From Candidatus Buchananbacteria bacterium (GTDB lineage: Bacteria; Patescibacteriota; Patescibacteriia; 2-01-FULL-39-33): 58,549 bases of DNA. The notes under the pieces were generated by a model that saw nothing but the letters and a program-made list of their open reading frames with translations, was not told the origin of the DNA and ran no database searches. Positions 2,792-24,318 of the stretch are shown one piece after another. The position numbers were made by a program, and so were the translations under genes. Location: contig JAUSEE010000031.1 of assembly GCA_030650095.1 (NCBI GenBank), positions 1 through 58,549 of the forward strand, in the 5' to 3' direction. Each line of letters begins with the position of its first letter. The stretch's first letter is position 1.

Positions 2792-3550
2792 TTAAGTTTT
2801 GATAAGCTTAATTACCATGGCAGTCAAGTTGTCTCGGCTGCCTCTTTGTGAAGCTGTTTTGGTGATTTCTTGGGAAATATCTTGAGTATTATCCCCATTT
2901 TTAACTATTGTAGCCACATCTTCGTTGGTCATTGTTTCAAAAATACCGTCGGAAGCTACTATTAAAGCCAAATCACTAGGCTTCAAAATGTATGTGGCCG
3001 TATAAGGAGTTGAGATTAAACCTAAAGAATAATACTCAAAATCGCCAATGGAACGGCTGATGGCAATTGATACGAGGTCATTTGAAAAAATACGATTGTT
3101 CATTACGACACCATCAAAATGACTTATTCTTTCTTCTTCTATCTTATTATCCGGGTGATGATCGACTGTTAATTGATCAACTTCTGATCCAATAGCCAGT
3201 ATCCTGACATCGCCGGCATTAGCCAAATAAACATCTCCTTGAGAAATGATTAAATTGGCAGCGCAAGAACCTCCGGGTAAGTCTAAAGTTTTCGTTTCAC
3301 TGGAAATTTTTTCATAAGCTAAAATGAAAGACTCGGCAAAATCAAGTCCTTCGTCCAAAAAGGACAAGAAACGCAAGTGTAATTCTTTTTCCACCAATTT
3401 TACAACCTCATCTCCGCCATGGCCGTCATAAACGCCGGCAAATAATTCGCCCTGATTTCTAAAATTAGCATCAAAATAAAAACGATCCTCCATGTACCGG
3501 CGCCGGCCACAATCGGCCGAGACTCCTATTTCAAACTTCAAAGTAATCAC
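2792..3550 (-). CDS. PP2C-family Ser/Thr protein phosphatase
   Basis: MEDR, VYDGHGG, ANAGD, SRSIGD, ASDG, DNLT motifs; true start may be the TTG at 3541. Confidence 0.9.
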   Translation of the reverse strand: MITLKFEIGVSADCGRRRYMEDRFYFDANFRNQGELFAGVYDGHGGDEVVKLVEKELHLRFLSFLDEGLDFAESFILAYEKISSETKTLDLPGGSCAANLIISQGDVYLANAGDVRILAIGSEVDQLTVDHHPDNKIEEERISHFDGVVMNNRIFSNDLVSIAISRSIGDFEYYSLGLISTPYTATYILKPSDLALIVASDGIFETMTNEDVATIVKNGDNTQDISQEITKTASQRGSRDNLTAMVIKLIKT

Positions 3551-3663
3551 CTCCTTTGTTGTTTTAAGGTTCTATATTCGATTTAGGACAGATTAACACG
3601 GCAAAAACTTTCTGTCAATTATAAAAAGCGGTTTTAAACCGTTTTTTATAATGGAATTAATTA

Positions 3664-4023
3664 TTACAAACAAGATTTAGCTTTGGCAAAGTCAATTAAG
3701 CTGGGGGAAGCACCAGCTTTAATGGCAGCTACCCTATCAGCTCCCAATTTGGCTGTAAAACAATCTTCCATGGCCGGAGTAATTTCACTGGGCAGTTTAG
3801 ACGGATCAATGCCTATTTTTTCCAAAGTGGATTCTTGGCTGGGAGTTAAAAGCGGATTTTTATCTCCTGAGACCTGGTTGGTTGAGGTGGCTTGATTAGC
3901 GCTATCAGATGATGGAGATATTAAAAATGACTTTAGAGTAAAATAAACATAAAGGCCGCCCCCGACGAGCAGTAGCATAACAATAACCAAAACGATAATT
4001 AAAAAAATCACTAATTTTTTCAT
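3664..4023 (-). CDS. hypothetical single-pass membrane protein
   Basis: 119-aa ORF with an N-terminal TM helix. Confidence 0.75.
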   Translation of the reverse strand: MKKLVIFLIIVLVIVMLLLVGGGLYVYFTLKSFLISPSSDSANQATSTNQVSGDKNPLLTPSQESTLEKIGIDPSKLPSEITPAMEDCFTAKLGADRVAAIKAGASPSLIDFAKAKSCL

Positions 4024-4072
4024 CTTATTATATTAATGAATAATTAAACAAAAAATTATCACTGTTTTCTGC

Positions 4073-4540
4073 TTACTTCAGATTTTTAATATCACTCAAA
4101 ACTTCCCGGGCATGATCAGCCGGCTTAACCTTTTCATAAATCTTAGCTATCCGGCCTTGGGGATCAATCAAAAATGACATTCTTTTAATCCCTAAATAAC
4201 TTTTACCCATAAACTTTTTCTCTCCCCAAACGCCATAAGCTTTAATCACTTTTTTATCAACATCTGCTAAAATCGGAAAGGACAATTTAAACTTACTGTA
4301 AAAATTATGGTGGCTCTCCACGGAATCAGCGCTCACGCCCAAAACAGCGGCTTGGCTTTTTTTAAAATCAGAAAAATTATCTCTCAACTGGCAAGCTTCT
4401 TTAGTGCAACCAGGAGTGTTGTCTTTGGGGTAAAAATAAAACAAAAGCCACTTGCCCTGATAATCAGACAAAGAGTGGATATGGCCGGCTTGATCCGGCA
4501 ATGTAAAATTAGGAGCTTTTTGTTTTAATTTTAGTGGCAT
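4073..4540 (-). CDS. bcp: peroxiredoxin Bcp/PrxQ
   Basis: FYFYPKDNTPGCTKEAC active-site motif. Confidence 0.95.
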   Translation of the reverse strand: MPLKLKQKAPNFTLPDQAGHIHSLSDYQGKWLLFYFYPKDNTPGCTKEACQLRDNFSDFKKSQAAVLGVSADSVESHHNFYSKFKLSFPILADVDKKVIKAYGVWGEKKFMGKSYLGIKRMSFLIDPQGRIAKIYEKVKPADHAREVLSDIKNLK

Positions 4541-4549
4541 GAAACATTA

Positions 4550-4945
4550 TTATTCCGTTGTTTTACCGTCAAAATGCTCGTCGGAGGCTTCGGCTTCGGC
4601 TTTAGCTTTAAACACCACGCCATCCTGATGATTGGCCGGAGAATAAACAGTGTAAAGTTTCATTTCTTCGCTGGCCGAAGTATTTACTATATTATGATTA
4701 GCGCCAGCCGGCACAACTACGGCCGAGCCGTCTGATAATTCGTGCTCGACACCGTCTAAAATCGCCTTGCCCGTGCCTTTTTCCACTCTGATAAACTGAT
4801 CAAGAGTGTGGACTTCTGCGCCGATTTCTTCACCCGGAAGCAAGCTCATTAAAACCAATTGGCTGTGTTTGGCGGTATAGAGAACTTTCCGAAAGTTATC
4901 ATTAGCTATAGTCTCTGTTTCTAGATTAACAATGTATCCTTTCAT
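4550..4945 (-). CDS. cupin domain protein
   Basis: GEEIGAEVH..DQF and VVVPAGANHN cupin motifs. Confidence 0.9.
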   Translation of the reverse strand: MKGYIVNLETETIANDNFRKVLYTAKHSQLVLMSLLPGEEIGAEVHTLDQFIRVEKGTGKAILDGVEHELSDGSAVVVPAGANHNIVNTSASEEMKLYTVYSPANHQDGVVFKAKAEAEASDEHFDGKTTE

Positions 4946-4994
4946 AAATTTGTGATTAATTATTAAATATTTTTCATCTAATTAAAATTAGAAC

Positions 4995-6479
4995 TTATTC
5001 ATCGCTTTTCTCCGGCCTCATCAGAGGGAATAAAACCACATCCCGCAGATTGGACTGCTGGGTTAGGAGGGCGACAATCCTTTCTACGCCCATGCCCCAA
5101 CCGGAAATAGGCGGCATACCGTATTCCATGGCCTTGATATACTCGTCATCTTTGGACATAGCTTCTTCATCACCTCTTTCTTTGTCTTGGGCTTGTTTTT
5201 CCAGGCGTTCTTTTTGGTCCAGAGGATCAATCAATTCGCTGTAAGCATTTAATATTTCCCAGCCGTTGACAATCAGTTGGAATCTATCGGCAACGGTTGG
5301 ATCATCATTATTTTTTCTGGCCAAAGGAGATAAATCAATGGGGTGATGCAATAAGAATGTCGGATTGATGATTTTGGCTCTAGAAACTTCCTTATAGAGC
5401 GCATCAATCAGATTGCCTCGCCCTAATTTATCCATGTCTTCGATTTTTATTTTCTTTTTCTTGATTTCCTGACGCAAAGACTGGGCATCAGAAAACTTAT
5501 CAATATCAATGCCGCAATCGGTTGTGATTAAATCCTTAAAAGAAACCTTTTTCCAAGGTGGCTTGAAATCAACCGTTACGGACTTGCCCTCTCGATTGAT
5601 AATTTCTATTTTGGTAGTGCCCTTTAACTTTTTTATAATGGAAGAGAGCATCTCCTCGGTGAATTTCATATTATCCTGATAATCCCAATAAGCGCAGTAA
5701 TGTTCGACCATGGTGAAATCCTGCAAATGGCCCGGATCCATGCCTTCGTTTCTAAAAACTCTGGCCACTTCAAATATTTTTTCATAACCGCCGATAATCG
5801 CCTCTTTCAAATAAATTTCCGGGGCAATCCGCAAATAAACATCCAAATCTAAAGAATTATGGTGGGTGATAAACGGCTTAGCCAAGGCCCCAGAAGCGGA
5901 ATTGCAAAGCACCGGAGTTTCAATCTCATAAAATCCCTGATCCTTATAAAATTTTCTAAGTTCCCAAATAAAATCGCTCCTAAAATTAAACCGGTCGCGC
6001 GTGTCTTGACTAGTAATCAAATCCAAATATCTTTGGCGATACTTGGCTTCCTGATCCTTGAGACCGTGCCATTTTTCCGGCAGAGGCCTTAGAGCCTTGC
6101 TTAAAAATTGGTATTTTTCCACCAAGACAGATACTTCGCCTTTTTGTGTTTTAAAAACTTTGCCGGCCACGCCGATGAAATCGCCCAGATCAATCATTTT
6201 GGTGATATTTTTATAATCATCCTGATTTAAAACATCATTTTTAAACACCACCTGCAATTTGCCGGAAAAATCCTGGATATGAGCAAAGGCGATTTTTCCC
6301 ATATTGCGAAACAACATCACTCGGCCGGCTACTTTGACGGCCGTGTCCAATTTTAAATTTTTGATATCGGTGGCCTGATGAGTTTTGGCAAATTTATCAG
6401 CATAAGGATTAAGGCCTAAATCCTGGATTAGCTTTAATCTTTTTAACCTATCCTCCTGTTCGTTTATATTTTTGTTCAT
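4995..6479 (-). CDS. lysS: lysine--tRNA ligase (class II)
   Basis: OB fold, YRQRYLDL, YLRIAPE, FRNEG, YGMPP..GWGMGVER motifs. Confidence 0.97.
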   Translation of the reverse strand: MNKNINEQEDRLKRLKLIQDLGLNPYADKFAKTHQATDIKNLKLDTAVKVAGRVMLFRNMGKIAFAHIQDFSGKLQVVFKNDVLNQDDYKNITKMIDLGDFIGVAGKVFKTQKGEVSVLVEKYQFLSKALRPLPEKWHGLKDQEAKYRQRYLDLITSQDTRDRFNFRSDFIWELRKFYKDQGFYEIETPVLCNSASGALAKPFITHHNSLDLDVYLRIAPEIYLKEAIIGGYEKIFEVARVFRNEGMDPGHLQDFTMVEHYCAYWDYQDNMKFTEEMLSSIIKKLKGTTKIEIINREGKSVTVDFKPPWKKVSFKDLITTDCGIDIDKFSDAQSLRQEIKKKKIKIEDMDKLGRGNLIDALYKEVSRAKIINPTFLLHHPIDLSPLARKNNDDPTVADRFQLIVNGWEILNAYSELIDPLDQKERLEKQAQDKERGDEEAMSKDDEYIKAMEYGMPPISGWGMGVERIVALLTQQSNLRDVVLFPLMRPEKSDE

Positions 6480-6642
6480 AATTTTGTTGGCTTTATTGTT
6501 ATCATAATATCATATAAGATTGCATAATTCAACGCTATTATCAGCTAAACCGGCCGCTGGTTTAATTATAACTTAACAATTAAAAAACACCTGGAAATGG
6601 TGTATTTTGACAATATTATTATAAATAAAAATTATTTAGAAA

Positions 6643-7689
6643 CTATTGATGCCTAATAACATCTTCATATATTTCTTTTAATTCTCTATTGTCAGGATCG
6701 AGTTGAGTAGCTTGTTTAAAATTTAAGATAGCCTTATCAACTTGATTAAGCACCCAATAATAATTTCCTAGCGCAACATAACACCAAGCATAATTCGGCT
6801 CGTATTCAACACAATATTTGGCATGACTTAATGATTTTTCATATTCTTTTTCAACTAGATAAACATATGAAAGTGAAGCATGGGCTGCGGCATATTTAGG
6901 AATTAAACTGATTGCTTTTAATTGGTATTCTTTTGTTTTTTCAATATTACCTTTTCGACTTTCTGAAATACCAAGCCAATAATACGCAATTGCCCTTTCC
7001 TCATCTGTTTCTGCATCTTCTAGCGCCTTTTTAGCGTTATCATTTTGTTGATTCCAATCTTGCTTTATCCAGCTAGCTCGAGTTTCATAGGCTCTTGCAT
7101 CAAAATTACTACTATTATTAATAAGCCCAACAACTACTACGGTCAAAATAATTAAAATAATTTCGACAACCTTTTCAATACCATTTTTATACTTATTAAT
7201 AAGAAATAAAAGAGGAATTACTAAAATAATCAGAACAATAACAGAAAAAAGCGCGTCATATCTTACAAAAGCATAATTAAAATCTGCCACATCCGACTCA
7301 TTAAATGTTTCTTGAAAAATTGGTCTTATCGGCATCGTTATAAGTATTGAAGAAAGGATAATAAATGAATCACTCAGAAGAGATAATTTAAAATTAGTTT
7401 TTTGATCTTTAGTTTTACTATTAAATCTGGCATAGACTAAACTAGACAAAAAAGAGAAACGATTTCTTAAAATGCTATAAATAAACACGAAAGAAAAAGT
7501 AACAGAAATTGATCTGACAAAAATTATTAGTAGCAGTTCCAAGTTGATATGTTTTTCAATAAAAATTAAACCTCTGGTGTATGACTCAAAAATTAACCCT
7601 ATAAATACCAACAAAAAAACTAATGTTGCTTCAATAATGAATCTACTAATATTTTCCTTATAAACTATACTTCTGTTTTTATTTTTCAT
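6643..7689 (-). CDS. multi-pass membrane protein with C-terminal TPR repeats
   Basis: About 5 hydrophobic segments, then TPR-like repeats (AYYWLG, AHASLS, CYVALG). Confidence 0.8.
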   Translation of the reverse strand: MKNKNRSIVYKENISRFIIEATLVFLLVFIGLIFESYTRGLIFIEKHINLELLLIIFVRSISVTFSFVFIYSILRNRFSFLSSLVYARFNSKTKDQKTNFKLSLLSDSFIILSSILITMPIRPIFQETFNESDVADFNYAFVRYDALFSVIVLIILVIPLLFLINKYKNGIEKVVEIILIILTVVVVGLINNSSNFDARAYETRASWIKQDWNQQNDNAKKALEDAETDEERAIAYYWLGISESRKGNIEKTKEYQLKAISLIPKYAAAHASLSYVYLVEKEYEKSLSHAKYCVEYEPNYAWCYVALGNYYWVLNQVDKAILNFKQATQLDPDNRELKEIYEDVIRHQ

Positions 7690-7765
7690 ATTTTTAATTA
7701 TATCACAATTTAAACCATAATATTTAATAATTAAAAAACACCCCTTTCGGGGTGATTTTTAATTG

Positions 7766-7836
7766 CAGGCGATGAGAGAATCGAACTCCCGCCATCGGTT
7801 TTGGAGACCGATGTTCTACCACTAAACTAATCGCCC
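7766..7836 (-). tRNA. tRNA-Trp(CCA)
   Basis: Cloverleaf GGGCGAT...ATCGCCT-G, anticodon loop CTCCAAA, GTTCGATT T-loop. Confidence 0.95.
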
Positions 7837-7877
7837 AAACAAGCAAACGGCCAACAAATTGCCAGCCGTTTTACCAG

Positions 7878-8033
7878 TTACTTAGTTTCTTTATGTAGGG
7901 TGTGTTTTTTGCAATGCTTACAATACTTTTTAAGCTGTAATCTCTCTTTTAAAAGCTTTTTGTTTTTGGAAGAGAAATAATTAACACGTTTACACTCCGT
8001 ACACTCGAATTTAATCATATTTTCCTGTGACAT
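7878..8033 (-). CDS. rpmG: 50S ribosomal protein L33 (Zn-binding type); not in the ORF track
   Basis: Manual translation [51 protein letters not shown]; lies next to tRNA-Trp as usual. Confidence 0.95.
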
Positions 8034-8063
8034 AGCTGTACTTAGATTAATAATTTATTGATC

Positions 8064-10380: not shown

Positions 10381-11901
10381 ATGAAATACTTTATTTACGC
10401 TCGCAAGAGTACAGAGGAAGAGGATAGACAAATATTATCTATCGAAGCTCAATTAGTTGAATTAAAAGAATTTGCCGCCAAAGAAAAACTGGAAATTGTC
10501 GCTTCCTTTCAGGAAGCCAAGACTGCCAAAGAGCCAGGCCGAATAATATTCGGCGAAATGCTAGCCAGAATCGAAAAGGGCGAAGCTAATGGCATTATTT
10601 CGTGGCACCCAGACAGATTGGCCAGAAATAGCGTTGACGGGGGCAAGATTATACACATGATCGACAAAGGAGTAATAAAAGCCCTCAAATTCCCAACCTT
10701 TTGGTTTGAGCCCACGCCACAAGGATTATTCATGCTTAGCATTGCTTTTGGCCAAAGCAAATACTATATCGATAACTTGCGCGAAAATGTTAAACGAGGT
10801 ATGAGGCAAAAGCTGAGAAATGGCGTCTGGCCTTCGCTTGCCCCGATCGGCTACTTGAATAATCCTAAAACCAGAGGCATTGATGTTGACCCTATTAAAG
10901 GGCCACTTGTTAGGCAGATATTTGAGCTCTATGCCTCTGGGGATTATTCATTAGGCGATTTAGAGAGATTCTGCGAAGAAAACAGTTTGGCAGGCTTTCA
11001 GGGCAAGCGAATCAGGACGAGCTACTTCTTCACGCTTTTGCAAAACATTTTCTATATTGGGCTCATGAAATTCGGAGGGGAAGTATTTGAGGGCACTCAC
11101 GAGCCGTTAATTTCTAAGAAACTTTTTGAAGATGTAAAAAATGTCATGAGGCAAAGAGGCAAGAAACGAGGCAAGATAAAAAAACATGATTTTCCATATA
11201 TTGGACTGCTAAAATGCTCGTGCGGGTGCGGTATCACGGCCGAGATGCAAAAGGGCCACCATTATTATCGCTGCACCAAGAAAAAACAAAATTGCCTCGA
11301 AAAACATTTTTTACGGGAAGAAGAACTGGAAAATCAAATCAAAACTTACTTTCAAAAAGTTTCAATTACAACCCAAGAAACCGAGAAAATATTGTTTGAG
11401 CTGGACAAAGAGGAAACGCAAGCAAAGGAAGAAGTAATCATTATTGTTCAAAATCTGAAAAGTGAGTTAGAAAATATAAACATAAACCTTGAGAAATTAC
11501 TCGACGTTTATTTAAGCGAGGCAATCACAACCGAGGAATACACCACCAGAAAACAAAAAATCCTAACTCGAAAGTTAGAACTTAATGAGAGAGTCCAAGA
11601 TTTTGAACAAAATGGTGTTTCTTGGGTCGAACCGGCTCGTGAGTTTATTTTATCGCTCAATCAAGCCAATATCCTAACACAGAGCACGGAGAAAAAAGAT
11701 CTGGCTGCATTTCTAAAAAATATCGGGTCGAACCGCATTTTACAAAACCGCCAATTGCTTTTGGACTTTAAAATTCCGTATGATTTGGTCGCCGAAGGCG
11801 GCCAAAATAACCAACAAAATTTGACTTTTCCGAACTGGTGGGCCGGGAGGGATTTCCGCCATAAATCGCCAACAGAAACTTGGCGATTTATTTTGTCCTA
11901 G
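10381..11901 (+). CDS. large serine recombinase (resolvase + recombinase + Zn-ribbon + coiled coil)
   Basis: YARKST catalytic Ser, DRLARN, PIGY, GTHEPLIS, LKCSCGC...YYRC; last ~19 codons come from tRNA-like/flanking DNA. Confidence 0.95.
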   Translation: MKYFIYARKSTEEEDRQILSIEAQLVELKEFAAKEKLEIVASFQEAKTAKEPGRIIFGEMLARIEKGEANGIISWHPDRLARNSVDGGKIIHMIDKGVIKALKFPTFWFEPTPQGLFMLSIAFGQSKYYIDNLRENVKRGMRQKLRNGVWPSLAPIGYLNNPKTRGIDVDPIKGPLVRQIFELYASGDYSLGDLERFCEENSLAGFQGKRIRTSYFFTLLQNIFYIGLMKFGGEVFEGTHEPLISKKLFEDVKNVMRQRGKKRGKIKKHDFPYIGLLKCSCGCGITAEMQKGHHYYRCTKKKQNCLEKHFLREEELENQIKTYFQKVSITTQETEKILFELDKEETQAKEEVIIIVQNLKSELENININLEKLLDVYLSEAITTEEYTTRKQKILTRKLELNERVQDFEQNGVSWVEPAREFILSLNQANILTQSTEKKDLAAFLKNIGSNRILQNRQLLLDFKIPYDLVAEGGQNNQQNLTFPNWWAGRDFRHKSPTETWRFILS

Positions 11902-17449: not shown

Positions 17450-18649
17450 TTATTCTTTAGTTGTATCAGCATTGGGGAGCTCTTCAAATTTAACTGACAT
17501 TGTAGGATTCCCTCGGGTTAGCTTTTTAATTGTCAAATCTTCTATTTTATTATTGGCTATACGAAGATTATTTTCTGACGACAGGAGAGCATCTTTGGTT
17601 TTTTGGAGATGATCTATGGTTTTATCTATTTCTTCGATGGCGGTTTTAAATTTACGACTGGCTAGATCATAATTTTTTGCAAATCCTTCTTTAAATTTAT
17701 TTACATTATCTTCAAAGTTTGTAATATCAATATTCTGATTCCTTACTAAAGCAAGCTCAGCCTTGTATTTAAGCGAATTCATAGCTGCATTACGTAGCAA
17801 GGTTATTATAGGAATGAAAAATTGTGGACGAACTACATACATTTTTTGATATTTATAAGAAACATCAATAATACCAATATTATATAGCTCATTTTCGGCT
17901 TCCAGAAGCGTCACAAGCACGGCGTACTCACACTTCTTCTCTATGCGATCTTTATCAAGCTCACGCAAAAAGTCTTCATTTTTATGCTTTGTGGCGGTCT
18001 CATCGCCTTCATTTTTCATTTCGAACATAATGGAAATGATTTCATTGCCAGAATCATCTGTTTCGCGATAGATATAGTCACCCTTACTGCCTGACTTGGA
18101 ATTATTGTCCTTTTCAAAATATGCTCGCTGGAAACCAGTAGCACGGAGTTTATTAAATTCAGTCTCACAATGTTGCTCCAAAGTTTCGCCAACCATTTTT
18201 GTACTGAGTTTTAATTTCATGTCCTTATAGCGTTCGATCATCTCGTCCTTTGACTTCAATTCGTTTTCATATTTATTCCTCAATGAAGTTTCAAGAAGGT
18301 GTTTTTCGTGTTCTTTACTTTGAAGTTTGGCAGTGAGACCATCACGCTCTTTCTCGATTTTATTGACCGCCTCAGTGACAGCAAGTTTTTTCTGAAGTTC
18401 TGCGTTATTGATTTTTGATTTTATTTCAGCTAATTCGGATTCCTTGTATGCAAGATCTTTTTGTAATATATTGGTAATATTTGCTTCAGCAAGTTTAATT
18501 GCATTTTCTTTTTCATTTTCTGCAATGTTTAATCGCTCTCGTAATTCTTCCTCAAATTGATGATCTCGAACTTGCTTAAGAATATCAGCAAAACCAGCCT
18601 CATCGACTTTGAAAACTTTTTTACAATTTGGACATATAATTTCTTTCAT
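17450..18649 (-). CDS. DUF2130-family coiled-coil protein
   Basis: CPNC N-terminus, [45 protein letters not shown] motifs. Confidence 0.85.
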
Positions 18650-18719: not shown

Positions 18720-19457
18720 TTAAAATCTTCTACGATAACCGCCTCGGCCCTTCCAGTTTGGGGCTTCCATGATCATAGAATTAGCTAAATTTTGTTTAGG
18801 TTTATCAAATGCAAAATCTTCTAACAATTCCGCTCCTTGAATTCTGTCTAGTCTAAATGTTCGTAAATCATGAGCCAAATGACAATTAGCAACTACATAA
18901 GTCTTATTCAAAGAATATGGATCAACTATCCTCCAAATCCCCTTATAACGAATCTTTATTGACCGACTCTTATTTATACCAGCTTCCAAGACTGAATAGT
19001 AATTCACTTTTGTCTCGACTGGTTTTGCATGATCAATAACCACCTCATTATATTTTTTACGTGCAGTATTATATGAAGCTAATTGTCCCTCACTAAATTT
19101 TTGTTTAATACTTTCTAAATAATTAACTTTCTCTTGTGCCCTACTTGTTCCTCTGGAATATTTTAATGGATCACCAGTAAAAGAAAGTAATTTATTTATA
19201 TCACTCTTTGACGCCTCAAGCTCACGCCTCGTGCGACGCCCACCGCTAACCGAAATATACTCTGAAGAATAAGATTTTGTTTTACATACAGAACAAAATC
19301 TGCCAAAGCCAGTAATTAGCGCCTTATCTTTAAAATCTGATAACAATTTTATTTCTCCACAACGAGGACAAATCTTGGAATTACCGCTACGTAAATCATG
19401 AATAGTATCCTGTATATTATTGACTATTTCATGATTTATAATTTTTTTTTTACTATT
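18720..19457 (-). CDS. Zn-ribbon + WYL-domain reading frame (probably translated as a -1 frameshift extension of the helicase)
   Basis: Frame is open from 19457 with no ATG before the track start (TTG 19346); CPRC...CSVC; WYL motif RIVDPYSL...YVVANC..RTFRLDRI. Confidence 0.8.
   Translation of the reverse strand, partial: NSKKKIINHEIVNNIQDTIHDLRSGNSKICPRCGEIKLLSDFKDKALITGFGRFCSVCKTKSYSSEYISVSGGRRTRRELEASKSDINKLLSFTGDPLKYSRGTSRAQEKVNYLESIKQKFSEGQLASYNTARKKYNEVVIDHAKPVETKVNYYSVLEAGINKSRSIKIRYKGIWRIVDPYSLNKTYVVANCHLAHDLRTFRLDRIQGAELLEDFAFDKPKQNLANSMIMEAPNWKGRGGYRRRF
19392..19451 (-). promoter_or_regulatory. putative programmed -1 ribosomal frameshift signal
   Basis: A_AAA_AAA heptamer in an A10 run (19442-19451), 6-nt spacer, 15-bp stem (19423-19438 with 19392-19406). 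Confidence 0.7.
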
Positions 19458-22400
19458 TCATATATTCTAGAATCTAATGTGCTGATTGGATTTTCCCCTA
19501 AATTAAACTTGTTTATTCTAATGAATTTATAACCATAACTTTCAAGAATATATTGTCGATATACATCTTCTGGAGAATAATATTCTTGATAATTTGACTC
19601 GTTAACCAAACCAATATAATCACCAAAATGCTCAAGGAAGCCATCATATTCAATAATGATTTTATATTGTTTTCCGTCATTATCGTCGTAAATAAGAAGA
19701 AAATCCACTCTATAATTTGGATGATTATAGCTTTTATCCAGTTGCTTTAGATACACGCCCAATTTAAACTGAGGCAAAATTTCTGCTGAATCTTTGTTTT
19801 CCTCCCAAAATTTAGTTTGATAAAACCAGTCAAGAACCAATGGTTCCATGGCAGATTTTTTATCAACAGCACTACTATCAAGCTCTTTCTGTCCATCAAT
19901 AAGTATATTGGAATAGTGTTGTAAAAATTCCTTGGTTGTTCCACTATACTGATCTATTGGCTTGCTTAGAACAAAATGCATACATTCTTTAGCACGACTT
20001 AAACCAACATTAAGACGTTGTGCTTTAATTTTTCCTTCATCGTCGTCTTGATCAATACTATTTAAATCACTAATAAATACATAATTTAATTTATCGTCAC
20101 TCAATGTTGCGACCATCGAATAAAATATTATATCCATTTCCTCTCCCTGACAGGTATCAAAAGTCATTATTTTTAGCTTTAGAATATCAAACAAATAATC
20201 CGCCTCTGGTAGATCGCTGATTTTCTTATATAATAGCTGCTGTTGATTTGTATGAGGAGTAATAATACCAACGGTACACTTCTTGCTATGATTCTTAATT
20301 TCTATAAGCTGTAAAATAATATAATCAACCTCTGGAGTGTTGGTATTTTTTATTATCTCCTCTAAACCATCGTGTTTTATTTGACTAAATTTTATAACTG
20401 AGTTAATTGAAACTCCCCTAACTTTCATGACCTGAAGACTACCTTTATAAAAATATTTATTTGAATAAGAGATAAGTTCTCTATAGCCACGAAAATGTTT
20501 TACTAGACGGATTTGATAATTATTAATAAAACCAAAGAAATCTAAAATTGAAACCTTAATATTAAACTTTTCTAATCGAACAACCTTATCAGTCTCAGAA
20601 GATATATGATTTAAAAATACATCCTTCAAATTAGATAGATATTGTTTATTTATGTCACCACGGGCTAACGCAGACTTAACATTACTGAATTGCAAACTAT
20701 CTCCGAGGACGACTACCTTCTTGGCTCTCAAAAGAGCGGGAAAAGCTTGGGCAATACTTACTTGAGAAGCTTCATCAATAACAACTAAATCAAAAATCTC
20801 AGGTTCTAATGGTATATACTCGGCATAATCACGAATCCCAGACAAAATACAGGGGAATGCGCTCTTTAACTTTATAAACTGCTCCTTGGGAAATTTCTTT
20901 TTATCTTTTATTACCTGTTTAAGTGCTTTTGCATCACCCTTATAGTCATTAGTAAAGCCAACAAACCGCTCATCCATTAGATAGGTCATTTGCATTGTTA
21001 CAATATTTTCTATCTGTCTTGTTCTGTCTCCATAGTTTAGATCCTTAATTTCATCAAACTTTGATATTAAATCTTGATGAATAGAAATTAGTCTAACTAA
21101 TTTTTCAAATTCAAGATCTGAAATACTTGTCAGTTTATTTTCACATAAAGATTTAAACAAATTATCATTAATGCCAGCGGCGGTAAAACTAGACTCATGG
21201 TTACATGATACCCCTCTTAGATAATTGATATCATCATCAATTTCTATCAGAGAATCAACATATTCCTTGCAGACACTTATTCCTTCTATTATTTTTTTTA
21301 AAAAAATTGTTTGTAGTAGTACATCAATACTTATGTCTTTTTTCAGGTTAATATTTGCATTAATTAAATCACTCTCTTCTGATATTAATTTAATTATATT
21401 TTCGTATAAAGAGTTTAATTCATAAACAACCGATAAACAATTCAGATCTTTAAGAGTTAAAATATTAATTGATCCCTCTCTTAATTTTTCAGTAAGTATT
21501 TCTGCCTTAGACAATCCTGCAGTTAAATGATTTAGTTTTGATAGTTGATCTTCAGATAAATAAACGTCTTTATTTTTTAAAATTGACGTTACTAAAAATA
21601 TAAAATCAATATTATCAAAAAAACTTAAATCACTCTCAACTTTAAGCTCAAGAATATACTTATAAATACCCATAATTGTTTCCAATTCCTTGATTTTTTT
21701 ATGAGGATTTTCGATGTTTGAAAGTACAAATTTTTTAAGAAAACCTTGATTTAGCTTCTCTATCTGCTTCGTCTTACCAAAATAGCCAAAAAGAAAACCC
21801 TTTAACTCCTTGGCTGATTTAATATACTTATCTAAAGAAGCTAAATCATCGGAGTGAGATTCGTTGAATAAATTTAATAATGATAAATCATCCTTAATGT
21901 AATACCTGGATTTTTTTACAACATCATTAAGTATTAGCGAAAACTTAATAACTTCTCGAATGATTTCTAGTGAGTTTAGATGATTTTTTCTCACGCCCAA
22001 GATACTTATATATTCTTTTTTGCCATCTAAAATATCGACAATTTCAAAAATATCTGTCAAATAACCAAGCAACTCACTAACAATCGATTCATGACTCTTG
22101 ATTAACGGCTGATATACCGTAAATAATTCATCAATTTGAAACTGAGAATTTTCTGCTATAATTCTCTTCATATCTATAAGATCAGTAATAACCTCTTCTA
22201 AATTCTTTGAATTATCTATATTTAGTTCTTTTTTGAAATCAAAATTAAAAGAAATAGATCTATTTGATTGAATTTTTTCTTTAATTTTTAATAGAATGCT
22301 CCTTATTTTGATTAGTTCTTCCACTGAATTAGTATTTTTAACCGCCTCATCAATATCAATACATAAACCATCATGATCAAAATGTTTTTTTAATAACACG

Positions 22401-24199
22401 AGCTCATTGATTTCATTAATAGAAATTTTATTATATGCGCTCACCTGATCCTCTACTCCATTCCTTAATGCAGCTATTGCAGTGTCAATTTGTTCATTTA
22501 AATTGGGATATTTACTTCTAACGGCTCTAAACTGCTCAGTTATCCCAGCAATAGATGATTGTGTTAGTAATTGGCTATATGTATTGCCAGTCTTACCCAA
22601 TCTTAATAATGGATTTTGAAATTTTTCATCAACCCTAACTTTATTGAGTGTATTAACTATATTTTTTTCTACCACGTCTAAAGCTTCCTTTTTATCGGAC
22701 AACACCAAAACTGATTTATCTTTAAGGATAGTATCAAAAACAATTGCTGTTATGGTGTGACTTTTTCCAGTTCCAGGGGGACCTTCTACTAATAAATATT
22801 TACATTTATCATTATTAATTGCCGAAAGAATCTGCTGCTGTTCACTATTTAATGGTATTGGACTTTTACAAACTAGTCGTTCATCGATATTCTTCTCGTC
22901 CCATTCATCAATAATAACCATATTAACAGATTCTGGATTCTTATGAATAAAATCATCAATTAAAATCTGAAATCCATTCATTAATGAGCTACCTTCTGGA
23001 GCATTAAGAATATCTTCATAATCATTAAGAAGTGCCTCATCCGACTTGTCAAATAAAGCTACATAAACATTTGAACTCACGGACACGTAAAGATTTTTTG
23101 TTGCTTGAATATCTGGATTGGATACTTGGATTTTACCGTCAAGATTAAAAAAATTAGTAATGTCTGTCAGTGTTTCCTGTAAGACTAAATGAAGATCTTT
23201 TTTATGGTCTGCCAAATAAATAATACGCTCCGCAATTGTTTGAAGAGAACCCTTTTTATCGCGTTCCAAATTATATTCCTGAGCGATATAGGCTAACGCT
23301 TTTTTATTAATGTATATCTGAGAATCAAAAATAATATAAAATATATCGCTCTTGCGCTCAATTGAGAAGGGTATATAAAATATCGGATATTTATTTTTCT
23401 GATAACTTATATCATAAAAATAAAAATAAAATTCTTGCTTATCCTCTGTTTTAAAATTTTGATACAACTCATGTAGATCATTAAATAAATCAGAAACCTT
23501 AAACATGTCAAAAAATTTGGTTAAACTATCACATACATCATTCAAATTTAATGCACCTATTAATAATTTTTTTGTATTTGATTTTTCTCCACTTAATTTC
23601 TGTCTAATAGCCTCAGATACAGAATCGCTGATTTTCATCTTTAAAATCTCAGTTAACTCTTCTTCTATTTGAAATATAGCATTTTCATCGGCAAGCTTAT
23701 TGTTATCTAAGGATTTTTCTAAACTTTTCACCAAATCAAGCACAATGCGTTTTTTAAATACCTTATCGGCATCAGCCATAACACAATTAAAGGCCTGCAA
23801 ATAATCGTCACTATACTTAAGAGCCGATTGCTTAATAGATTCATCAAGATCTTTAATTAAATTAACAATATCAGATTCTGACACCTTAGCTATTTGTTTT
23901 TTTATTAAGTCAAGCAATGACTTGGGTATATCAGCCTTGTATACGCTCTTCTGTACTGAGCTCAATATATCGCTATTAAAACAATTATTAACTAACTTAT
24001 AGGCTACTTTATAGAAGCTTGGGTATTTACTCAAATTAATACCAGTAAGCAACCCCTTATCATTATGAAGTTTTACGCTTCGACGGGGTAATTTTCTTTT
24101 ATGGAAATCGGTTTCTAAAAATTCCATAAAATAACCGCCAACTTCTTTAATAAAGCAAGATAGTGAGTTGGGCTGTTTTTCTATAGATTGTTTAGCCAT
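19436..24199 (-). CDS. SF1 (DNA2/NAM7-like) helicase with C-terminal Vsr/DUF559-like PD-(D/E)xK nuclease
   Basis: EGPPGTGKS, IDEASQ, GDSLQ, CQGEE, RLNVGLSRAK helicase motifs; YRVDFLL...IEYDG...RQYILESYGYKFIRI nuclease; ATG at 24199 preferred over TTG 24262. Confidence 0.9.
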   Translation of the reverse strand: MAKQSIEKQPNSLSCFIKEVGGYFMEFLETDFHKRKLPRRSVKLHNDKGLLTGINLSKYPSFYKVAYKLVNNCFNSDILSSVQKSVYKADIPKSLLDLIKKQIAKVSESDIVNLIKDLDESIKQSALKYSDDYLQAFNCVMADADKVFKKRIVLDLVKSLEKSLDNNKLADENAIFQIEEELTEILKMKISDSVSEAIRQKLSGEKSNTKKLLIGALNLNDVCDSLTKFFDMFKVSDLFNDLHELYQNFKTEDKQEFYFYFYDISYQKNKYPIFYIPFSIERKSDIFYIIFDSQIYINKKALAYIAQEYNLERDKKGSLQTIAERIIYLADHKKDLHLVLQETLTDITNFFNLDGKIQVSNPDIQATKNLYVSVSSNVYVALFDKSDEALLNDYEDILNAPEGSSLMNGFQILIDDFIHKNPESVNMVIIDEWDEKNIDERLVCKSPIPLNSEQQQILSAINNDKCKYLLVEGPPGTGKSHTITAIVFDTILKDKSVLVLSDKKEALDVVEKNIVNTLNKVRVDEKFQNPLLRLGKTGNTYSQLLTQSSIAGITEQFRAVRSKYPNLNEQIDTAIAALRNGVEDQVSAYNKISINEINELVLLKKHFDHDGLCIDIDEAVKNTNSVEELIKIRSILLKIKEKIQSNRSISFNFDFKKELNIDNSKNLEEVITDLIDMKRIIAENSQFQIDELFTVYQPLIKSHESIVSELLGYLTDIFEIVDILDGKKEYISILGVRKNHLNSLEIIREVIKFSLILNDVVKKSRYYIKDDLSLLNLFNESHSDDLASLDKYIKSAKELKGFLFGYFGKTKQIEKLNQGFLKKFVLSNIENPHKKIKELETIMGIYKYILELKVESDLSFFDNIDFIFLVTSILKNKDVYLSEDQLSKLNHLTAGLSKAEILTEKLREGSINILTLKDLNCLSVVYELNSLYENIIKLISEESDLINANINLKKDISIDVLLQTIFLKKIIEGISVCKEYVDSLIEIDDDINYLRGVSCNHESSFTAAGINDNLFKSLCENKLTSISDLEFEKLVRLISIHQDLISKFDEIKDLNYGDRTRQIENIVTMQMTYLMDERFVGFTNDYKGDAKALKQVIKDKKKFPKEQFIKLKSAFPCILSGIRDYAEYIPLEPEIFDLVVIDEASQVSIAQAFPALLRAKKVVVLGDSLQFSNVKSALARGDINKQYLSNLKDVFLNHISSETDKVVRLEKFNIKVSILDFFGFINNYQIRLVKHFRGYRELISYSNKYFYKGSLQVMKVRGVSINSVIKFSQIKHDGLEEIIKNTNTPEVDYIILQLIEIKNHSKKCTVGIITPHTNQQQLLYKKISDLPEADYLFDILKLKIMTFDTCQGEEMDIIFYSMVATLSDDKLNYVFISDLNSIDQDDDEGKIKAQRLNVGLSRAKECMHFVLSKPIDQYSGTTKEFLQHYSNILIDGQKELDSSAVDKKSAMEPLVLDWFYQTKFWEENKDSAEILPQFKLGVYLKQLDKSYNHPNYRVDFLLIYDDNDGKQYKIIIEYDGFLEHFGDYIGLVNESNYQEYYSPEDVYRQYILESYGYKFIRINKFNLGENPISTLDSRIYEIVKKKL

Positions 24200-24318
24200 A
24201 AATTTAAATAAATTCTCATAAATATTAATTTTAATAATACCACTTTTCACTTGATAAGTCAAAAGAAAAACAGGAGCAGTTTTTATGTCTGCTCCTGTTT
24301 TTATAACAATAATTTATC

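Follow-up and report, generated by a model that had tools for sequence, protein, structure and literature searches.

The window analysed here, a 58,549-nt stretch of DNA from Candidatus Buchananbacteria bacterium (assembly GCA_030650095.1, contig JAUSEE010000031.1), an ultra-small groundwater bacterium, encodes on its minus strand a large superfamily 1 (SF1) helicase whose reading frame runs into ten consecutive adenines (A10) and ends shortly behind them. A second open reading frame (ORF), for a Zn ribbon and a WYL domain, crosses the same run in the -1 frame. The initial annotation, made from the letters of the window, proposed that a frame change at the run appends the Zn-ribbon/WYL module to the helicase and yields isoforms of about 1587 and 1826 aa. 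This core claim is strongly supported by comparison: the arrangement recurs at 20 of 23 junctions, the other three carry in-frame fusions, and the linker between the two ORFs has the signature of coding sequence. Judged from these comparisons, recoding by one mechanism or the other is very probably real and selected, and short and long isoforms are presumably both made. Within recoding, we lean towards transcriptional slippage as the main route; the specific reading that RNA polymerase slips on a run of at least nine A's stands, in our estimate, at about even.

The zero-frame gene (19436-24199, minus strand) encodes an SF1 helicase of the Upf1/DNA2-like type followed by a region that is suggestive of a restriction endonuclease, and comprises 1587 aa from an ATG. 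The ORF finder uses a TTG at 24262, which gives 1608 aa (ORF 19436-24262). We choose the ATG at 24199 as the likely start since it aligns with the N-termini of the orthologues L084 and L085. Read on the minus strand, the ORF ends with GAA ATA GTA AAA AAA AAA TTA TAA, from GTA on as the initial annotation had described. The A10 run, the proposed recoding site, occupies positions 19442-19451 (minus strand) and reads GTA AAA AAA AAA in the zero frame and AGT AAA AAA AAA A in the -1 frame. The zero-frame TAA stop (19436-19438, minus strand), the end of the short isoform, lies two codons past the run. In orthologues, the corresponding stop lies about five to seven codons past the run, and it is close behind the run at every locus.

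The open stretch of the -1 frame extends from 19457 to 18720, which amounts to 245 codons from stop to stop, and reads NSKKKIINHEIVNNIQDTIHDLRSGNSKICPRCGEIK...FCSVCK.... Its stop (18720-18722, minus strand) would end a long isoform of about 1826 aa. The frame is open over the A10 and lacks an ATG of its own near the start, as had been noticed; none of ATG, GTG or TTG precedes the first CxxC. The first of these codons in the frame is the TTG at codon 38 (19344-19346, minus strand), at which gene callers begin a 'stand-alone' WYL protein of 208 aa, and the database protein for the window (P0002, 208 aa, 100% identity) begins at this TTG. In accordance with the earlier observation that such a start would split the cysteine pairs, codon 38 falls between the two CxxC motifs (codons 30-33 and 55-58). 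Current annotation of these loci is wrong in this respect: the 'stand-alone WYL protein' that it contains is a truncation, begun at an internal TTG that divides the Zn ribbon.

We compare 23 junctions, namely those of the window and of loci L002-L007, L082-L094, and L096-L098; L095 and L099 are excluded, as their contigs end short of the junction. The loci come from a scan of genome contigs (six close loci) and a scan of metagenome contigs (seventeen close loci). A run is present at the junction in 22 of the 23 loci, as A9 in 18 and as A10 in four. The Zn-ribbon/WYL ORF lies in the -1 frame of the helicase ORF in 20 of the 22 run-bearing loci. L096 and L097 are identical at the junction, leaving 19 distinct frameshift junctions and 21 distinct junctions overall. 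What distinguishes the four A10 loci from those with A9 is a C-to-A substitution and no indel, and therefore the frame relation is the same in both groups. The slippery site and the -1 ORF are thus conserved among homologues, as had been expected of a recoding signal, whereas the stem that was to accompany them shows no covariation. The homologues are neither all simple in-frame fusions nor independent genes with starts of their own, the two outcomes that would have told against the proposal.

Where the contig holds it whole, the helicase ORF measures 1591-1640 aa, and six loci are cut by contig ends. In L006 (Kaiserbacteria), the helicase is spread over three ORFs (3142-5262, 5259-6347, and 6307-8037) and the A9 junction and WYL ORF are intact; the locus may be a decaying copy or may contain assembly errors. 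The named hosts of the orthologues are Minisyncoccia, Andersenbacteria, and Kaiserbacteria, all Patescibacteria, except for L007, which is in a bin labelled uncultured Gammaproteobacteria, by possible mis-binning or transfer.

The linker downstream of the run evolves as coding sequence in the -1 frame, ahead of any start codon. In the 19 distinct frameshift loci, the -1 frame opens behind a stop situated 2-49 codons ahead of the run, and none of the 19 has an ATG, GTG or TTG between that stop and the run. Past the run, the earliest canonical start differs among the loci: in 7 of the 19 it is a TTG at the Leu of DLRSG, in 10 it comes only after the first Cys codon, and in L004 it appears only at codon 213 of 247. 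From the run on, the peptide SKKK(L/I)YNHEIVSNIQ.TIRDLRSG is conserved. In the window, this linker (IINHEIVNNIQDTIHDLRS..; 19386-19441, minus strand) is read only after a frame change, has no start codon of its own, and is predicted to form an alpha helix.

Diversity, calculated as the pairwise mean per alignment column, gives the reading frame on either side of the run. Over the 18 codons of the linker, read in the -1 frame, it is 0.18 at the first codon position, 0.206 at the second, and 0.505 at the third. The corresponding values are 0.073, 0.214, and 0.517 for the end of the helicase in the zero frame and 0.165, 0.223, and 0.581 for the Zn ribbon. The linker and the flanking genes share the same codon-position pattern, indicating that the frame under selection switches exactly at the run.

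At three of the 23 loci, helicase and module are fused in frame, indicating that the fused protein is a real product. L084 (1839 codons) and L085 (1830 codons) are single in-frame ORFs with an extra T before an intact A9 (GTT AAA AAA AAA CTT). L098 is a distant relative (module identity 33%) with a single in-frame ORF of 1762 codons and no run (..LVKNGVSRHSRINRIYETIEGLQSG..). Pfam AAA_11, AAA_12, and WYL all match the polypeptides of L084 and L098. Beyond these loci, an exhaustive profile-free search finds the same linker and Zn ribbon in frame in seven helicases of the wider family (P0070, P0075, P0090, P0093, P0103, P0125, and P0140), several of which carry a topoisomerase-type zinc finger in place of the WYL domain. 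A word search for longer fused proteins scored 0 of 1574 candidates; it is a weak search, and is overturned by the fusions found at the loci and exhaustively.

To order these forms, we calculate a maximum-likelihood tree from the C-terminal 450 aa of the helicase (29 rows, the duplicate L097 being dropped, midpoint root). The run-bearing clade (21 rows) is monophyletic (support 100/100), and every outgroup is in frame. L084 and L085 are nested within the run-bearing clade, beside L003, L083, and L086 (94/78). The simplest reading of the alignment and tree is that an in-frame ancestor acquired the run and the -1 arrangement once, that the arrangement was retained while the module fell to about 50-60% identity, and that one re-fusion followed. 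The direction of change is read from the outgroups, seven plus one, all of which are in frame, under a root placed at the midpoint only. The wider family has its Zn ribbon fused constitutively, and the run-bearing clade would instead make the tail sub-stoichiometric. The re-fused L084 and L085, which keep their A9, would give the reverse isoform ratio.

Homologues of the module annotated without a helicase are also found. A protein search yields 41 'stand-alone' homologues of 160-285 aa; 19 of them are aligned, and the usual N-terminus is MRSG or LRSG, which falls on the Leu of DLRSG. When 40 relatives of the host genome are searched in six frames with the 245-aa module, no match turns up outside the host's own genome (1 of 41). 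Viral contigs give 21 matches, all to generic WYL (residues ~140-214), and no orthologue.

The run itself is more strictly conserved than its coding role explains. The nine shared run columns are invariant in all 21 distinct junctions, and none of 56 flanking third-codon columns is invariant. In these genes, AAA makes up only 61% of the Lys codons and GTA only 26% of the Val codons, and the junction run is the sole run of at least nine A's in each of these genes. Two slippery heptamers lie in register within it, A_AAA_AAA (run positions 1-7) and A_AAA_AAC (positions 4-10). A heptamer of the X_XXY_YYZ type in the zero-frame register is present in 19 of 19 distinct frameshift loci, as GT[A AAA AAA] AAA in the window and as GTA AA[A AAA AAC] in most orthologues. 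Either heptamer by itself would free at least one synonymous position of the run, yet none varies. The conserved run of at least nine is longer by two than a heptamer requires.

The length of the run is reproduced by a second assembly. The initial annotation had called for the A10 to be confirmed in raw reads, and the answer comes from assembled contigs: a Logan contig of sequencing run X1 (982 nt, depth 16) covers positions 19200-19597 with no differences and no gaps and gives A10, not A11. X1 is the single sequencing run found with the locus and may be the source sample; the search for runs that contain the locus returned no RNA run. Contigs from X2 and X3 are short pieces of 90-95% likeness that come from relatives and are uninformative.

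In the genome of the host (1.159 Mb, 62 contigs), to which the census of A/T runs is confined, runs of 7, 8, 9, and 10 number 1271, 262, 8, and 1, respectively. Runs are overrepresented up to length 8, the expectation for independent and identically distributed (iid) bases being 389 for runs of at least 7 and 118 for runs of at least 8, and collapse at 9, where 9 runs of at least 9 are observed versus 36 expected (iid). The sole A/T run of at least 10 in the whole genome is the junction run, and the iid expectation is 11. Six of the nine runs of at least 9 A/T sit in ORFs that are intact and keep one frame throughout. Elsewhere in the genome, long runs of G or C occur singly (C10, C8, G9, and G8).

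These two features, an invariant run of at least nine A's and a genome-wide cliff at nine, favour slippage by RNA polymerase over hairpin-stimulated -1 frameshifting. According to Baranov et al. 2005 (PMC1088944), nine nucleotides is the length at which selection against slippage shows in many genomes, and functional use is recognised from a conserved ORF organisation together with a conserved 9A shared by two or more homologues that are not identical. Atkins et al. 2016 (PMC5009743) describe efficient slippage of bacterial RNA polymerase in vivo on nine A or T and its use in Thermus thermophilus dnaX. Three marks of this 9A/9T class are found here: a homopolymer of at least nine in a coding region, a conserved ORF layout and run (20 loci, 19 distinct junctions), and, in the genome of the host, selection against such runs.

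We propose the following course of expression. Standard decoding would stop two codons past the run and give the helicase of about 1587 aa with its putative PD-(D/E)xK end. In a share of expression, a shift to the -1 frame at the run would add about 240 aa, for about 1826 aa in total. By analogy with the 9A/9T class, RNA polymerase would slip on the run, and a single A added to the mRNA would bring the second ORF into the frame of the helicase. The ribosome may contribute by slipping to -1 on A_AAA_AAA or A_AAA_AAC, and both routes can act together. In the zero frame as well as in the +1 frame, a stop is reached no more than about ten codons from the run (as seen in L005), and all non-productive events would therefore yield nearly the same short form.

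The likeness to known slippage genes is close. T. thermophilus dnaX and the 9A/9T genes of insertion sequence (IS) elements (PMC1088944, PMC5009743) likewise have a homopolymer of at least nine in a coding region, two products with a common N-terminus, a conserved ORF layout, and a host that avoids such runs. There are two differences: slippage truncates the product of T. thermophilus dnaX, whereas slippage here, read from the sequence, would extend it by about 240 aa; and the gene is a defence-like helicase of Patescibacteria instead of a replication or transposase gene.

Several observations weigh against this preference for RNA polymerase. The run is also a -1 slippery site in the correct register, and the assembly has a single tRNA-Lys(UUU) among 42 tRNAs; A-rich heptamers are shifty in Escherichia coli, likewise with a single tRNA-Lys(UUU) (PMC5009743). 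Two tandem heptamers could jointly explain the retention of nine A's. In L006, L007, L088, and L089, hairpins at the right spacing are more stable than synonymous recodings. The loci are related and the tree suggests a single origin; therefore, the 20 loci are not 20 independent events. The case as a whole is built on sequence comparison and assembled contigs.

Programmed -1 frameshifting by the ribosome is accordingly the main alternative, and we regard it as possible, if on the doubtful side. In this explanation, the mRNA is unaltered, the ribosome slips on A_AAA_AAA in the window or A_AAA_AAC in most orthologues, a hairpin or the nearby stop or both help, and the long isoform is the same. 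The heptamer in register at all 19 distinct frameshift loci and the lone tRNA-Lys(UUU) suit it, and IS1 uses A_AAA_AAC with no known stimulator (PMC4066793). The sites of E. coli dnaX, IS3, and IS1 likewise combine an A-rich in-register heptamer, a zero-frame stop close behind, and a -1 ORF that lacks a start, and the window has a hairpin after 6 nt. Unlike at those sites, neither a conserved downstream structure nor a Shine-Dalgarno-like element is found, and the conserved run measures 9-10 nt, not 7. A Shine-Dalgarno-like CAGGAG upstream of the run, which encodes Gln-Glu, is present by eye in some alignment rows only and not in the window. By this inspection, there appears to be no conserved upstream element of that kind. 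Nine invariant A's also exceed the need of one heptamer.

The hairpin of the window would be the natural stimulator of such frameshifting. It begins 6 nt after the first heptamer and folds as the initial annotation had described, as a stem-loop of 15 pairs with one bulged A and a 16-nt loop (19392-19438, minus strand), in which the TAA stop forms the first three pairs at the base of the stem. The stem-loop is A-U rich, with a folding energy of -11.9 kcal/mol (z = -1.29) that is matched or bettered by 18 of 200 dinucleotide shuffles, indicating that the stem by itself is not above chance.

In the alignment of 21 sequences, the stem is paired in 70.2% of cells, as compared with 69.8 ± 0.7 with shuffled partners; the value is reached in 182 of 500 shuffles, and double changes in the stem are not in excess. 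Slid registers pair in 23.8-43.8% of cells versus 70.2% in the stem register, a contrast in favour of the hairpin, but this control is biased toward a structure drawn from one row. RNAalifold does not predict the stem from the alignment. At third codon positions, the stem region (0.505) is no less diverse than the flanks (0.517 and 0.581).

As a test of stability, each of the 21 sequences is compared with 300 synonymous recodings of its own 19 codons. Only 4 of the 21 rank at or below 5%, namely the four loci with hairpins named above, which form one close group, and the mean z is -0.60. The segment of the window (-11.2 kcal/mol) is borderline, 7% of its recodings being as stable. The folds of L002, L003, L083-L086, and L090 are weak (-2.0 to -5.0 kcal/mol). 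Given the lack of covariation, the lack of an RNAalifold prediction, and the 4 of 21 above recodings, the hairpin is, on this comparative evidence, not a conserved part of the signal. The canonical layout of heptamer, spacer, and stem-loop, on which the initial annotation had relied, is therefore not borne out beyond the heptamer.

Phase variation at the DNA level is very unlikely. Here, the run would be a contingency tract in which replication slippage toggles between short and long genotypes, and the assemblies would show the commoner state. Runs of 9-10 A's are prone to mutation, and the genome-wide depletion of runs of at least 9 A/T would fit selection against indel-prone as well as slippage-prone tracts, both of which are named in PMC4066793. 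However, none of the 22 run-bearing loci is in frame through a change of run length. The in-frame forms among them owe their frame to the extra T beside an intact A9, and the four A10 loci, which arose by substitution, leave the frame relation unchanged. The aligned contigs contain no indel variant, though contigs drop rare variants.

Equally improbable is that the junction separates two genes or marks decay. In the former case, the WYL protein would be made alone, either by initiation at a codon outside the canonical set or by ribosomes that restart once they have passed the helicase stop; in the latter, the module would be the remnant of a frameshifted pseudogene. Gene callers do predict stand-alone proteins of about 220 aa (41 matches), and the TTG at the Leu of DLRSG is available in 7 of the 19 loci. 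That TTG is missing in the other 12, however, and the window has TTA there. Peptide conservation and codon periodicity start at the run, 16 codons upstream of the DLRSG TTG, and L004 has no canonical start until codon 213. Both sides are also intact and under purifying selection across the divergence of the WYL module to about 50-60% identity, and sister and outgroup lineages contain in-frame fusions.

The chance that the true gene is a plain in-frame fusion disguised by a homopolymer error in sequencing or assembly is negligible: some platforms are prone to errors in homopolymers, and the genome to which the window belongs was assembled from a metagenome (62 contigs), but the same frame relation holds in 20 loci from separate assemblies and collections, the X1 assembly gives an identical A10 at depth 16, and a zero-frame stop is close behind the run at every locus.

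The extension is predicted to start with a rigid helical linker and to continue with a four-cysteine Zn ribbon, then a helical bundle, and finally a WYL barrel of the ssDNA-binding DriD/CapW/BrxR type (ssDNA, single-stranded DNA). The Zn ribbon (CPRC ... CSVC; 19278-19379, minus strand) has its four cysteines C30, C33, C55, and C58 invariant or nearly so in 20 sequences. The WYL beta-barrel domain (18816-18998, minus strand) matches Pfam PF13280 over residues 154-210 (E = 5.8e-10; 39.5 bits versus a gathering cutoff of 21.8). An AlphaFold2 (AF2) model of the module, with a mean predicted local distance difference test score (pLDDT) of 78, comprises a long helix (residues 2-24), the Zn ribbon (residues ~27-60, with strands at 27-38), a disordered stretch (residues 64-77), the helical bundle (residues ~84-143), and the Sm-like WYL barrel (residues 165-214, pLDDT > 90).

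In Foldseek searches, the Protein Data Bank (PDB) neighbours of the barrel are the WYL domains of PafBC, DriD, CapW, and BrxR (E = 3.9e-6 to 1e-3). The barrel superimposes on the C-domain of DriD in complex with ssDNA over 74 columns with a root-mean-square deviation (rmsd) of 2.5, and on CapW in complex with ssDNA over 75 columns with an rmsd of 2.2. By analogy with these proteins, the WYL tail may bind ssDNA or another nucleic-acid signal and tune or target the helicase. Although the barrels are structurally alike, DriD, CapW, BrxR, and PafBC are transcription factors with an N-terminal helix-turn-helix (HTH), whereas the WYL domain here is placed behind a Zn ribbon in the C-terminal tail of a helicase, where a search for an HTH finds none. 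A fusion of helicase and WYL has a precedent in a bacterial PIF1 with an ssDNA-binding WYL domain.

Two further observations concern the module. In the window (18720-20008), it is only 48-63% identical to the orthologues versus 72-84% for the last 190 aa of the helicase, so that the recoded part evolves faster. P0014 and P0022 (the protein of L007) have an extra insertion, CxxC...CxC and resembling a zinc-binding motif, between the Zn ribbon and the helical bundle (alignment columns ~65-165).

A more speculative extension of the slippage reading, which we hold improbable, is that the junction acts as a tunable switch. The slippage rate, set by transcription speed, nucleotide pools or infection state, would fix the share of tailed protein, and tailed and tailless copies might mix in complexes like tau and gamma in the clamp loader, which would make the helicase an immune or genome-surveillance enzyme of ultra-small bacteria controlled by recoding. 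Regulation of this sort is not found for helicase-nuclease defence proteins in the literature searched.

The SF1 helicase core is identified by Pfam AAA_11 (52.1 bits, E = 1e-13) and AAA_12 (58 bits, E = 1.3e-15), with a cutoff of 27 for both. PADLOC models of defence helicases match the core, namely PDC-S37 (5.1e-39), MkoC, MkoA, and Hhe (3e-19). The NCBIfam scores are 129.7 bits versus a cutoff of 1500 for ProA and 85.4 versus 2000 for Hhe, and the matched residues are ~1134-1433 only. Because the defence models match the core only and the NCBIfam scores are far under their cutoffs, we assign the helicase to no defence-helicase family. It shares with Hhe (a DUF4011 helicase with a Vsr-like nuclease), PDC-S37, MkoA/MkoC, and ProA the AAA_11/AAA_12 core and the large size, and its C-terminal region may be nuclease-like as theirs is. 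A recoded WYL tail in the Hhe, PDC-S37, Mokosh or ProA families is not found in the literature searched.

Only half of the name 'helicase-nuclease' given in the initial annotation stands at full strength: the helicase part is above cutoff, and the nuclease part is suggestive, by sub-threshold profile and fold matches. Pfam gives no nuclease match in the helicase of the window, and the match of MTES_1575 to L098 (E = 0.0046) is under cutoff. A PDB profile search with the C-terminus returns a single match at chance level, to ribosomal protein S8 (E = 0.21). The AF2 model of this region is mediocre (pLDDT 64.6), and Foldseek gives no match at E <= 0.001; its best matches are BstEII, TnsA, and cap-snatching endonucleases (E >= 0.012), which have restriction-endonuclease folds. 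The model is thus suggestive of a PD-(D/E)xK-type nuclease.

To our knowledge, selected recoding in bacterial genes beyond transposases and phage amounts to a handful of cases, including dnaX, copA, csoS2, cdd, and mxiE. The present locus adds a case with unusually clean comparative support, the first that we find for an SF1 helicase of defence-like character and for Patescibacteria. The full-text literature searched, which comprises few subscription journals and no supplements, contains nothing on recoding in genes for a helicase with a WYL tail, in helicases directed against phages or in members of Patescibacteria; the GeneTack cluster lists or the supplementary tables of Sharma et al. 2014 or Baranov et al. 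2005 may include the family. As far as this literature goes, the kind of signal is known, whereas its occurrence in this gene family and host group is new, as is the presence of natural variants side by side. Forms that require a frameshift, forms that are secondarily fused, and forms that are ancestrally fused coexist, which provides a natural experiment on the value of two isoforms. The genome-wide cliff at nine A/T offers a simple way to ask if RNA polymerase is as prone to slip in these uncultured bacteria as in model bacteria.

The surroundings of the gene make the locus look like a mobile island, a reading based on gene content and consistent with the fact that close relatives lack the gene while several classes of Patescibacteria have it. 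The window encodes a large serine recombinase (Resolvase, Recombinase, and Zn_ribbon_recom; 10381-11901, plus strand), and six other loci have relatives of it close to the helicase, though not at a constant position. The WYL ORF is directly followed, in 10 of 21 loci, by a protein of ~496 aa with a PD-(D/E)XK/Cas4-like N-terminal part and a DUF2779/RNase_H_2 C-terminal part (for example, L003:1942-3438 and L087:6745-8241). In the window, a DUF2130 protein (17450-18649, minus strand) occupies the place of this ~496-aa protein.

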